Source of the DNA: Escherichia coli
GTDB lineage: Bacteria; Pseudomonadota; Gammaproteobacteria; Enterobacterales; Enterobacteriaceae
Length of the DNA stretch: 64,000 nt
Assembly: GCF_044647545.1 (NCBI RefSeq)
Contig: NZ_CP172818.1
Reading direction: 5' to 3' (one strand)
In this document: positions 13,812-30,846 of the stretch, in pieces
Numbering within the stretch: position 1 is the first letter of the stretch
How the letters are laid out: each line of letters starts with the position of its first letter
Program-made: the position numbers and the translations under genes
Notes under the pieces: model-generated
Told to the model about the DNA's origin: nothing
Databases searched by the model: none
The model's input: only the letters and a program-made list of their open reading frames with translations

Positions 13812-13887
13812 TCCTCTGTAGTTCAGTCGGTAGAACGGCGGACTGTTAATCCGTATGTCACTGGTTCGAGTCCAGTCAGAGGAGCCA
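13812..13887 (+). tRNA. asnT: tRNA-Asn (GUU), canonical 76 nt
   Basis: TCCTCTGTAGTTCAGTCGGTAGAACGGCGGACTGTTAATCCGTATGTCACTGGTTCGAGTCCAGTCAGAGGAGCCA. Confidence 0.9.
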
Positions 13888-14200
13888 AATTCTAAAAATT
13901 CGCTTTTTTAGCGCAATGTCACTGACCTTAGTTGAACATTGTTTTTTAACGGATAGCGGGTTTTTAACATCTTAAGCGCCCTCGACCTTTATGGTTGAGG
14001 GCGTTTTGCTATGAACGCCATCACCATTTTCCCCTCGATTATAAAACTTGAGTTATTCAGTAGTCTCCCCTCTTGCAACTCACACCCAAAACTGCCTAAC
14101 GAAAAGTTATTAATTTTCAATCATATTGCTATCAGTATTTACATTTTTTCGCTGTGCTAGAAAGGGCGCATTTATGTTAGCTCGTTCAGGGAAGGTAAGC

Positions 14201-17200
14201 ATGGCTACGAAGAAGAGAAGTGGAGAAGAAATAAATGACCGACAAATATTATGCGGGATGGGAATTAAACTACGCCGCTTAACTGCGGGTATCTGTCTGA
14301 TAACTCAACTTGCGTTCCCTATGGCTGCGGCAGCACAAGGTGTGGTAAACGCCGCAACCCAACAACCAGTTCCTGCACAAATTGCCATTGCAAATGCCAA
14401 TACGGTGCCCTACACCCTTGGAGCGTTGGAATCGGCCCAAAGCGTTGCCGAACGTTTCGGTATTTCGGTGGCTGAGTTACGCAAACTCAACCAGTTTCGT
14501 ACGTTTGTTCGTAATGTCCGCCCGGGTGATGAACTGGATGTCCAGGCACAAGTTAGTGAAAAAAATTTAACCCCGCCGCCGGGTAACAGCAGTGGCAACC
14601 TTGAGCAACAGATAGCCAGTACTTCACAGCTAATTGGATCTCTGCTCGCCGAAGATATGAACAGCGAGCAAGCGGCAAACATAGCACGTGGATGGGCCTC
14701 TTCTCAGGCTTCAGGGGTAATGACAGACTGGTTAAGCCGCTTCGGTACCGCAAGAATCACGCTGGGCGTGGATGAAGATTTCAGCCTGAAGAACTCCCAG
14801 TTCGATTTTCTCCATCCGTGGTATGAAACGCCTGATAATCTCTTTTTCAGTCAGCATACTCTCCATCGTACTGACGAGCGTACGCAGATTAACAACGGCT
14901 TAGGTTGGCGTCATTTCACTCCCACATGGATGTCGGGCATCAACTTCTTTTTCGACCACGATCTTAGCCGTTACCACTCCCGCGCCGGCATTGGCGCGGA
15001 GTACTGGCGCGACTATCTAAAATTAAGCAGTAACGGCTATTTGCGACTGACCAACTGGCGCAGCGCACCTGAACTGGACAACGATTATGAAGCACGCCCG
15101 GCCAATGGCTGGGATGTACGCGCAGAAAGCTGGCTACCCGCCTGGCCGCACCTTGGCGGTAAACTGGTCTATGAACAGTATTATGGCGATGAAGTGGCCC
15201 TGTTCGATAAAGACGATCGGCAAAGTAATCCTCATGCCATAACCGCTGGACTTAACTATACCCCCTTCCCGCTGATGACCTTCAGCGCGGAGCAACGCCA
15301 GGGTAAACAGGGCGAAAATGACACCCGTTTTGCCGTCGATTTTACCTGGCAACCTGGCAGCGCAATGCAGAAACAGCTTGACCCGAATGAAGTCGCTGCA
15401 CGGCGTAGCCTTGCAGGCAGCCGTTATGATCTGGTGGATCGCAACAACAATATCGTTCTGGAATATCGCAAAAAAGAACTGGTTCGCCTGACCCTGACAG
15501 ACCCCGTGACAGGGAAGTCAGGAGAAGTGAAATCACTGGTTTCGTCGCTACAAACCAAATATGCCCTGAAAGGCTATAACGTCGAAGCCACCGCACTGGA
15601 AGCTGCCGGTGGCAAAGTGGTCACAACGGGTAAAGATATTCTGGTTACCCTGCCGGCTTACCGGTTCACCAGTACGCCAGAAACCGATAACACCTGGCCG
15701 ATTGAAGTCACCGCCGAAGATGTCAAAGGCAATTTGTCGAATCGTGAACAGAGCATGGTGGTCGTTCAGGCACCTACGCTAAGCCAGAAAGATTCCTCGG
15801 TATCGTTAAGTACCCAAACATTGAACGCGGATTCCCATTCAACCGCCACACTGACTTTTATTGCGCATGATGCAGCAGGTAATCCTGTTGTCGGGCTGGT
15901 GCTCTCGACGCGTCACGAAGGTGTTCAGGACATCACCCTTTCTGACTGGAAAGATAATGGTGACGGAAGCTATACCCAGATCCTGACCACAGGAGCGATG
16001 TCTGGCACGCTGACGCTGATGCCACAGCTGAATGGTGTGGATGCGGCTAAAGCCCCCGCCGTGGTGAATATCATTTCTGTTTCGTCATCCCGAACTCACT
16101 CGTCAATTAAGATTGATAAGGACCGTTATCTCTCCGGCAATCCTATCGAGGTGACGGTAGAACTGAGAGATGAAAATGACAAACCTGTTAAGGAACAAAA
16201 ACAGCAACTGAATAACGCAGTCAGCATCGACAACGTGAAACCAGGAGTCACTACAGACTGGAAAGAAACCGCAGATGGCGTCTATAAGGCGACCTATACC
16301 GCCTATACCAAAGGCAGTGGACTTACTGCGAAGCTATTAATGCAAAACTGGAATGAAGATTTGCATACCGCTGGATTTATCATCGACGCCAACCCGCAGT
16401 CAGCGAAAATTGCGACATTATCTGCCAGCAATAATGGTGTGCTCGCCAATGAGAATGCAGCAAACACCGTCTCGGTCAATGTCGCTGATGAAGGAAGCAA
16501 CCCAATCAATGATCATACCGTCACGTTTGCGGTATTAAGCGGATCGGCAACTTCCTTCAACAATCAAAACACCGCAAAAACGGATGTTAATGGTCTGGCG
16601 ACTTTTGATCTGAAAAGTAGTAAGCAGGAAGACAACACGGTTGAAGTCACCCTTGAAAATGGCGTGAAACAAACGTTAATCGTCAGTTTTGTCGGCGACT
16701 CGAGTACTGCGCAGGTTGATCTGCAGAAGTCGAAAAATGAAGTGGTTGCTGACGGCAATGACAGCGTCACAATGACCGCGACCGTCCGGGATGCAAAAGG
16801 CAACCTGCTCAATGACGTCATGGTCACTTTCAATGTTAATTCAGCAGAGGCGAAACTGAGCCAAACCGAAGTGAATAGCCACGACGGGATCGCCACAGCT
16901 ACGCTGACCAGTTTGAAAAATGGTGATTATAGGGTTACGGCCTCTGTGAGCTCTGGTTCCCAGGCTAATCAACAGGTGAATTTTATCGGTGATCAAAGTA
17001 CTGCTGCCCTGACCCTCAGTGTGCCTTCAGGTGATATCACCGTCACCAACACAGCTCCGCAATATATGACTGCAACCTTGCAGGATAAAAATGGCAACCC
17101 ACTAAAAGATAAAGAAATCACCTTCTCTGTGCCAAACGACGTCGCAAGTAAGTTCTCGATTAGCAACGGAGGAAAAGGCATGACGGATAGTAACGGGGTT

Positions 17201-30498: not shown

Positions 30499-30515
30499 AT
30501 TGCAAGATGCTTGCC
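30499..30515 (-). promoter_or_regulatory. Sigma-54 promoter (-24/-12) for nac
   Basis: Minus strand reads TGGCAAGCATCTTGCA, matching TGGCAC-N5-TTGCA about 55 bp upstream of nac start. Confidence 0.6.
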
Positions 30516-30770
30516 AGTTTTATTTTGGCGTTGATGTACAAGCTAACCAACTGTCAAATAAGAGATTATGATAGATTCGTCATTGGCTCTTTTCACCAGC
30601 AGTCGCGTTCCCCTGCCCTATAAAAGGAGGGTATGCACCACGATGGTTCATTACCAATAAGATTGAAATCTCATCACTTTGTTGAAATTGACAGCAAACA
30701 AACAAAAAAATGCATTTCACCCTTTGACATCACCATGCACTGCCATTAATATGCGCCCCGTTCACACGAT

Positions 30771-30846
30771 TCCTCTGTAGTTCAGTCGGTAGAACGGCGG
30801 ACTGTTAATCCGTATGTCACTGGTTCGAGTCCAGTCAGAGGAGCCA
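30771..30846 (+). tRNA. asnV: tRNA-Asn (GUU), canonical
   Basis: Exact 76-nt match to asnT sequence. Confidence 0.9.

Follow-up and report, generated by a model that had tools for sequence, protein, structure and literature searches.

The tRNA-Asn genes of Escherichia coli serve as integration sites for genomic islands, and a strain with four of them close together raises two questions: whether each copy is still an empty site, and whether an inverted copy among them allows the intervening DNA to be flipped. We addressed these questions for the asn cluster (asnT, asnW, asnU and asnV) in a stretch of 64,000 nucleotides from E. coli contig NZ_CP172818.1, referred to below as the window. A first reading of this DNA, made from the letters without database searches (the sequence-only reading), had proposed that all four genes are unoccupied and that the inverted asnW is a substrate for inversion. 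The cluster is the textbook E. coli asn-tRNA locus, empty and uninverted, and as such it is already known. We hold with high confidence that it is the standard cluster in the majority, K-12-type order, with four empty attB sites and with inversions possible between its copies.

Four tRNA-Asn genes and their attachment sites

Four tRNA-Asn(GTT) genes were called in the window by ARAGORN, with the anticodon gtt at position 34 in every case, and each scored 72.6 bits with the Rfam tRNA model RF00005 against a gathering score of 29. The sequence-only reading had placed four such genes within 13812-30846, and both methods gave exactly these outer coordinates. The genes, all located by ARAGORN, RF00005 and alignment, and the attachment-site features beside them are as follows.

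13812-13887, + strand: asnT, tRNA-Asn(GTT)
26532-26607, - strand: asnW, tRNA-Asn(GTT), inverted relative to the other three
28356-28431, + strand: asnU, tRNA-Asn(GTT), 37 bp from the cbl stop codon
30771-30846, + strand: asnV, tRNA-Asn(GTT), 55 bp from the ldtA stop codon
13872-13888, + strand: 17-nt att-type core CCAGTCAGAGGAGCCAA at the asnT 3′ end, by sequence match
30831-30847, + strand: att-type core at the asnV 3′ end, by sequence match; the distal repeat of the pks island in strain ZLWT aligns from 30831
13888-14200, no strand: empty-site flank of asnT, 313 bp to the yeeJ ATG, by sequence comparison
26079-26531, no strand: empty-site flank 3′ of asnW, 453 bp, AT-rich, containing the asnW terminator hairpin

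When the genes were aligned with 100-nt flanks, all 76 nucleotides were the same in the four copies and the sequence beyond diverged. Exact identity between pairs of copies runs for 84-92 nt, extending the tRNA by 4-12 nt on each side; for asnW the shared runs are 92 nt with asnT, 85 nt with asnU and 86 nt with asnV. The 25-nt tRNA 3′ end occurs four times in the window, and no occurrence is expected from shuffled sequence. The four-gene pattern is therefore not due to chance.

The CCAGTCAGAGGAGCCAA core is intact and present once per asn gene. No extra copy of the 17-nt or the 25-nt tRNA 3′ end was found outside the four genes in the 64 kb, allowing up to three mismatches. Three P4-type integrases, from the pks island and the high-pathogenicity island (HPI) of strain ZLWT and from a type III restriction-modification (R-M) island of strain HSP425, were compared with the whole window by tblastn; the best match reached E=0.34 and 24.6 bits, and no match was next to a tRNA 3′ end. 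The 3′ flanks of asnU and asnV extend for only 37 and 55 bp before a convergent core gene is met, too little to conceal a remnant. The only sizeable open reading frame (ORF) in the asnW gap, of 94 aa (26134-26421, - strand), matched no Pfam family. The nearest recombinase-like gene encodes an IS3-family DDE transposase (36255-37160), past cobU and unrelated to the tRNAs. Cryptic occupancy of the asn sites was rejected, the searches for 3′-end repeats, the integrase tblastn and the Pfam search of the gap ORF all being negative. The proposal that all four sites are unoccupied thus stood, with no integrase trace, no distal repeat, and flanks that match those of filled genomes; the integrase fragments and direct repeats of the tRNA 3′ end that the sequence-only reading had named as evidence to the contrary were looked for in the 64 kb, and none was found. 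From its sequence, the 3′ end of each asn gene is predicted to be an intact, unoccupied attB for P4-type tyrosine-integrase islands (HPI/ybt, pks and others).

Such integrases use the 3′ end of the asn tRNA, and after integration transcription from the tRNA promoter continues into the integrase gene; insertion of pks has been described at asnW, asnU or asnV (Auvray et al. 2021, PMC8209727). Where a strain carries an island, its integrase recombines the att site of the island with the last 16-24 nt or so of the tRNA. The tRNA is left intact, the integrase gene comes to lie directly downstream, and the far end of the island carries a short copy of the tRNA 3′ end.

Filled genomes were compared with the window at each site. 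In ZLWT the HPI starts directly past asnT, at the equivalent of window position 13891, and its integrase gene follows the tRNA at a distance of 160 bp. The right end of the island bears no repeat; the match to the window resumes there at 14476, and window positions 13892-14475, including the start of yeeJ, are missing from ZLWT. This agrees with the published account, in which the HPI of E. coli is fixed at asnT with its right direct repeat deleted (PMC8209727). The E. coli HPI uses the same tRNA 3′ end that is present here; the window lacks the HPI and keeps the 584 bp. A different island in strain ET5 has a 24-nt repeat (window 13864-13887) at its distal end, and the sequence after that repeat is the asnT flank found in the window. 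In HSP425, an integrase gene and type III R-M island start exactly at the asnW 3′ end, 26532. Strain 23CRST014 has a ybt element with an integrase gene after asnU, with a proximal breakpoint at about 28439, and D72 has an integrase pseudogene, IS1 and a small set of phosphotransferase system (PTS) genes after asnV. At its far end, the pks island of ZLWT gives way to window sequence from 30831 onward, which comprises the last 16 nt of asnV (30831-30846) and continues into ldtA; the island has on one side an asn copy that carries the yeeO 5′ flank and on the other the 16-nt repeat followed by the asnV 3′ flank and ldtA. The pks island, found at asnW, asnV or asnU, uses the same attachment sites and is likewise absent from the window.

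The flank beyond the island was seen to equal that of the window for asnT (in ET5) and asnV (in ZLWT), and for asnW and asnU the comparison gave proximal breakpoints. Because filled genomes break or rejoin at these points, the window flanks represent, at every site compared, the chromosomal side of attB. The sequence-only reading had described asn tRNA genes as HPI and pks integration sites and had proposed a comparison with genomes carrying these islands. Both islands abut these 3′ ends in ZLWT, the literature agrees, and the ZLWT breakpoints confirm the empty-site structure of the window.

To place the window among other strains, junction probes of 1,176 bp (the tRNA with about 550 bp on each side) were compared with 5,426 complete E. 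coli genomes. The window-type junction was collinear in 2,644 genomes for asnT, 4,970 for asnW, 5,179 for asnU and 4,662 for asnV, and the non-collinear counts are upper bounds for occupancy because they include insertion sequence (IS) insertions, deletions and rearrangements. Among the matches listed, genomes non-collinear at asnT break at query positions 626-631, which is the tRNA 3′ end. The non-collinear genomes that were sampled carry HPI, pks, an integrase gene with an R-M island, a ybt element or a small PTS islet. All four asn sites are in use somewhere in the species. The all-empty state is common, yet asnT is so often non-collinear that no more than about half of complete genomes can have it. 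The window can serve as a clean empty-state reference for scoring HPI, pks, other islands and inversions between asn copies in other genomes; its breakpoints are 13887/13891, 26532, about 28439 and 30831-30846.

Inversions between asn copies

Inversion is possible at this locus because the copies share their long runs of perfect identity and asnW is inverted. The runs shared by asnW (85-92 nt) exceed the minimal length for RecA-dependent exchange in E. coli. Homologous recombination between the identical runs, presumably of the RecA type, would flip the intervening DNA, and recombination among the three direct copies could yield deletions.

A synthetic junction was built for each inversion between two asn copies and matched to complete E. 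coli genomes. The asnW × asnV junction (yeeN-gap-asn(-)-nac(+)) was present in 265 genomes, including CFT073, 536, Nissle 1917, ABU 83972, ATCC 25922 and NU14. The asnW × asnU junction, in which yeeO alone is flipped, was present in 34, and the asnT × asnW junction, in which the 12.6-kb yeeJ-yeeN block is flipped, in one, ET5. Annotated gene order confirmed the asnW × asnV inversion in ZLWT and JE86-ST05, asnW × asnU in AH65 and asnT × asnW in ET5. Both junctions of the AH65 inversion are clean, and in ZLWT window positions 26528-30850 align reversed at 98.1%. The window itself has the majority uninverted order. The suggestion that the inverted asnW provides a substrate for inversion was thus borne out by the occurrence of the predicted junctions in 265, 34 and 1 genomes. 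ET5 (record L004, 16551-33175) also has, past the inverted yeeJ, an island with a 24-nt tRNA 3′-end repeat at its distal end, and an integrase-type junction at the yeeO-flanked asn copy.

The asnW × asnV inversion is already published and is not a new prediction. A 4,309-bp asnW-asnU-asnV region occurs in two orientations, the inverted form only in pks configuration 1A (PMC8209727). The asnW/asnV inversion was found within UTI89 cultures and validated by the polymerase chain reaction (PCR) (Russell et al. 2019, PMC6458436), and CFT073 is inverted relative to UTI89 (PMC6458436). Strains of configuration 1A have the 4.2-4.3-kb asnW-asnV segment inverted, whereas the window keeps the K-12-type order. 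Configuration 1A amounts to an island at asnV plus one asnW × asnV flip, because the distal repeat of the island precedes the asnV flank. For the asnW × asnU and asnT × asnW variants, no description was found in a literature search, and the yeeO-only (34 genomes) and 12.6-kb (one genome) inversions may be undescribed polymorphisms. All three asn inversions resemble those between rRNA, tRNA or IS copies in enterobacterial chromosomes, in that identical inverted repeats (86-92 nt for asnW against asnV or asnT) bound segments that are flipped in natural isolates. They differ in resting on repeats well below the length of an rrn operon or IS element and in flipping only small segments (1.7, 4.2 and 12.6 kb).

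Islands were found at the yeeO-flanked asn copy in many genomes. The yeeO-asn-integrase junction was matched in 367 genomes with a pks-type probe, 102 of the best matches being at 80-90% identity, and this count may take in related integrases; with the WP_000059629.1-type integrase the junction was matched in 38. In JE86-ST05 the order is inverted and the island is not pks; the integrase of that island, WP_000059629.1, is also found at the uninverted asnW of HSP425. The empty reciprocal junction, yeeO(+)-asn(+)-ldtA, was found in a single genome, SE15 (record L012, 2174-7626), where the order is asnW(-), a yeeO 3′ fragment, nac(+), cbl(+), asn(-), a complete yeeO(+), asn(+) and ldtA. SE15 was rejected as an island-free asnW × asnV inversion, since its annotation shows an inverted duplication that keeps asnW and a yeeO fragment. 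Our population counts extend the published work and overturn none of it. They may be of interest for work on the mobility of the colibactin and yersiniabactin islands: about half of complete genomes are non-collinear at asnT, and clean asnW × asnV inversions with an empty site are essentially absent.

Alternative explanations

Nothing we observed contradicts the emptiness of the sites, but some caveats apply. Being upper bounds, the non-collinear totals may overstate island occupancy. A very degraded remnant of an unrelated recombinase is possible in the 313-bp and 453-bp gaps, which were searched with three P4-type probes; conservation of both gaps over thousands of genomes counts against it. 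The yeeJ region is strongly variable, only 598 of the 5,426 genomes matching 80% or more of the 20-kb region, and this strain has a decaying yeeJ; the ultimate origin of this asnT-adjacent block could therefore be horizontal. It could be proposed on these grounds that yeeJ and the low-GC glycosyltransferase gene beyond it are an old, degraded island that has lost its integrase gene and repeats, so that asnT was occupied in the distant past. Many genome matches do begin only at the end of yeeJ, and GC content falls to about 0.40 around 21000-22000. We nevertheless regard an old island as improbable. The block is not bounded by a direct repeat of the tRNA 3′ end (64 kb, up to three mismatches), tblastn with the three integrases found no trace of such a gene, the asnT-yeeJ junction is collinear in 2,644 genomes, and the GC content of yeeJ itself is about 0.50. 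Moreover, the ET5 island carries its own 24-nt distal repeat in front of the same flank, so this flank acts as the chromosomal side of attB. An asnT that is empty, next to an ordinary if variable chromosomal flank, is the reading we prefer.

The inversions invite two other explanations, of which the first denies that they exist. Identical repeats of 84-92 nt can mislead assemblers, and the record of strain FHI_NMBU_03, which shows one asn gene, looks like a closure problem at the cluster; the inverted orders seen elsewhere might then be assembly artefacts and the cluster no real inversion substrate. We give this almost no credence. The repeats are far shorter than the reads of any current platform, the asnW × asnV junction is present in 265 independent complete genomes, among them the references CFT073, 536, Nissle 1917 and ABU 83972, both reciprocal junctions are present in AH65, ZLWT and JE86-ST05, and the inversion in UTI89 was validated by PCR (PMC6458436). 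More can be said for the second explanation, that the asnW × asnV flip was made by an island integrase acting on attL (the tRNA-int junction) and an inverted empty attB, and not by homologous recombination, although we think this rather unlikely. If it were true, an island-free cluster such as that of the window would be a poor substrate and essentially never asnW × asnV-inverted, and 'pks at asnW' (configuration 1A) and 'pks at asnV' (the UTI89 type) would stem from a single integration with a later flip driven by the integrase. Since SE15 is the sole case of the empty reciprocal junction and is no clean inversion, there is essentially no clean asnW × asnV inversion among the 265 genomes with an empty yeeO-flanked asn copy. 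ZLWT, JE86-ST05 and, going by name, the CFT073-type references carry islands at that copy, at least two integrase types (pks and WP_000059629.1) are involved, and the published inverted orientation is confined to pks configuration 1A (PMC8209727). Against this, AH65 has the asnW × asnU inversion without an island in the locus. Island-free inversion between asn copies therefore occurs, which argues against a general need for an integrase. Most of the 265 genomes are likely to be clonal descendants of very few events, so the association of island and inversion is phylogenetically confounded. Because the copies are identical across the tRNA and the flanking 4-12 nt, crossover points cannot separate RecA from integrase. 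Homologous recombination between the repeats remains our preferred explanation for the flips.

FHI_NMBU_03 was rejected as a strain with a single asn gene, because its linear record ends 79 bp after yeeN, where asnW should start. Its one-gene state probably reflects faulty closure of the assembly at the asn repeats. The single tRNA-Asn match in this record is asnT, followed by the HPI.

Gene order, promoters and strain-specific lesions

The genes around the cluster are listed below.

12731-12820, - strand: tRNA-Ser(CGA), by ARAGORN
14201-20636, + strand: yeeJ, inverse autotransporter adhesin, disrupted; ATG 313 bp past asnT
20780-21832, - strand: yeeL, glycosyltransferase family 9 gene (PF01075); end coordinate mapped from record L001
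22147-23463, + strand: shiA, shikimate transporter, from the annotated record
23565-25019, + strand: amn, AMP nucleosidase, from the annotated record; start mapped from record L001
25362-26078, + strand: yeeN, YebC/PmpR family regulator, from the annotated record
26708-28195, - strand: yeeO, MATE efflux transporter, on the 5′ side of asnW; upper coordinate from the annotated length of 1,488 nt
28469-29426, - strand: cbl, LysR-type regulator, frameshifted, by sequence comparison
29528-30445, - strand: nac, nitrogen assimilation regulator; upper coordinate from the annotated length of 918 nt
30902-31837, - strand: ldtA (erfK), conserved flank past asnV, from the annotated record

The K-12-like record BHUCD01 has, in its left part, zinT, yodB, tRNA-Ser, mtfA, asnT, yeeJ, a GT9 glycosyltransferase gene (yeeL), shiA, amn and yeeN, and in its right part asnW(-), yeeO(-), asnU, cbl(-), nac(-), asnV, ldtA (erfK)(-), cobT, cobS and cobU. 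Apart from three indels, the window is collinear with this record at 98.0-99.7% identity. The gene names given in the sequence-only reading (yeeJ, yeeL, shiA, amn, yeeN, yeeO, cbl, nac and erfK) are therefore right and match the annotated K-12-like order. The 20-kb region has no single-piece collinear match in any complete RefSeq E. coli genome, and an exact-protein search with the truncated YeeJ returned no record. The same reading had named yeeJ, yeeO, cbl and erfK as the 3′ neighbours of the four genes. This is correct for yeeJ (313 bp from asnT), cbl (37 bp from asnU to its stop codon) and erfK (55 bp from asnV to the ldtA stop codon). As asnW lies on the minus strand, however, its 3′ neighbour is yeeN and not yeeO: its 3′ end (26532) faces yeeN across the 453-bp AT-rich gap (26079-26531), and yeeO is 100 bp from its 5′ end.

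Compared with the asn cluster of E. coli K-12 (at about 44 min), the window has the same four genes, orientations, neighbours, order and tRNA sequences. What sets it apart from K-12 is a yeeJ with 283 bp deleted and its 3′ end replaced, a cbl with 7 bp duplicated and the lack of yodB. In yeeJ, sequence comparison placed the deletion between Big-domain repeats at about 18936-18964, where it shifts the frame; the ORF pieces are 14201-18661, 18697-18969 and 19059-20636, and a short stretch containing a poly-C tract has taken the place of the 3′ end (about 20567-20628). The lesion in cbl is a tandem duplication of GTCAGGC near 29330-29345, in the first 30 or so codons, which shifts the frame in the N-terminal helix-turn-helix (HTH) region. 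Judged from the sequence, this strain probably lacks an active cbl product, which regulates the use of sulfonate sulfur, unless the lesion is a sequencing error. Both genes had been named as neighbours at the right positions, but yeeJ is decayed and cbl frameshifted here. The cytochrome b gene yodB is absent between zinT and tRNA-Ser(CGA), where 179 bp (12105-12283) replace about 995 bp of K-12; the arrangement is collinear in FHI_NMBU_03 and is therefore a natural allele. At the 3′ side of the same tRNA-Ser, ZLWT has an island with DUF6387, AlpA-like HTH and H-NS-like genes.

A promoter of the TTGACA/TAATAT type is conserved 5′ of all four asn genes in the flank alignment. Each site matches the sigma-70-like consensus at 10 of 12 positions, stands at the distance expected for a promoter of its gene and is among the top scorers in the 18.5 kb scanned.

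13765-13793, + strand: asnT promoter-like site, TTGACA-17-TAATAT, 10/12 match, with conserved -35 and -10 columns
26626-26654, - strand: asnW promoter-like site, TTGACA-17-TAATAT, consensus match
28312-28339, + strand: asnU promoter-like site, TTGACA-16-TAAGAT, consensus match
30724-30752, + strand: asnV promoter-like site, TTGACA-17-TAATAT, consensus match

These consensus matches predict that each asn gene is transcribed from its own promoter. Hairpins followed by T-runs lie after asnW (terminator hairpin 26440-26470) and asnV (terminator hairpin 30853-30880). Cumulative GC skew drops steadily over 10000-35000, and the skew alone suggests that the + strand is the lagging strand at the cluster. 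If so, asnT, asnU and asnV would be head-on to replication and asnW alone co-directional, an unusual arrangement for highly expressed tRNA genes.

Past cobU lies a CP4-44-like block (34276-46300) with no adjoining tRNA gene, which includes the following features.

35911-36330: TonB-receptor Plug fragment, interrupted by the IS3-family transposase gene (36255-37160, - strand)
38619-38822: IS102/isrC RNA, by Rfam
38687-41962: Ag43-sized ORF
44345-44785: CbeA antitoxin

Elsewhere in the window, Rfam matches at 3805-3894, 54524-54598 and 56888-57011 correspond to the rseX small RNA, STnc240 and the histidine operon leader, all ordinary enterobacterial features.

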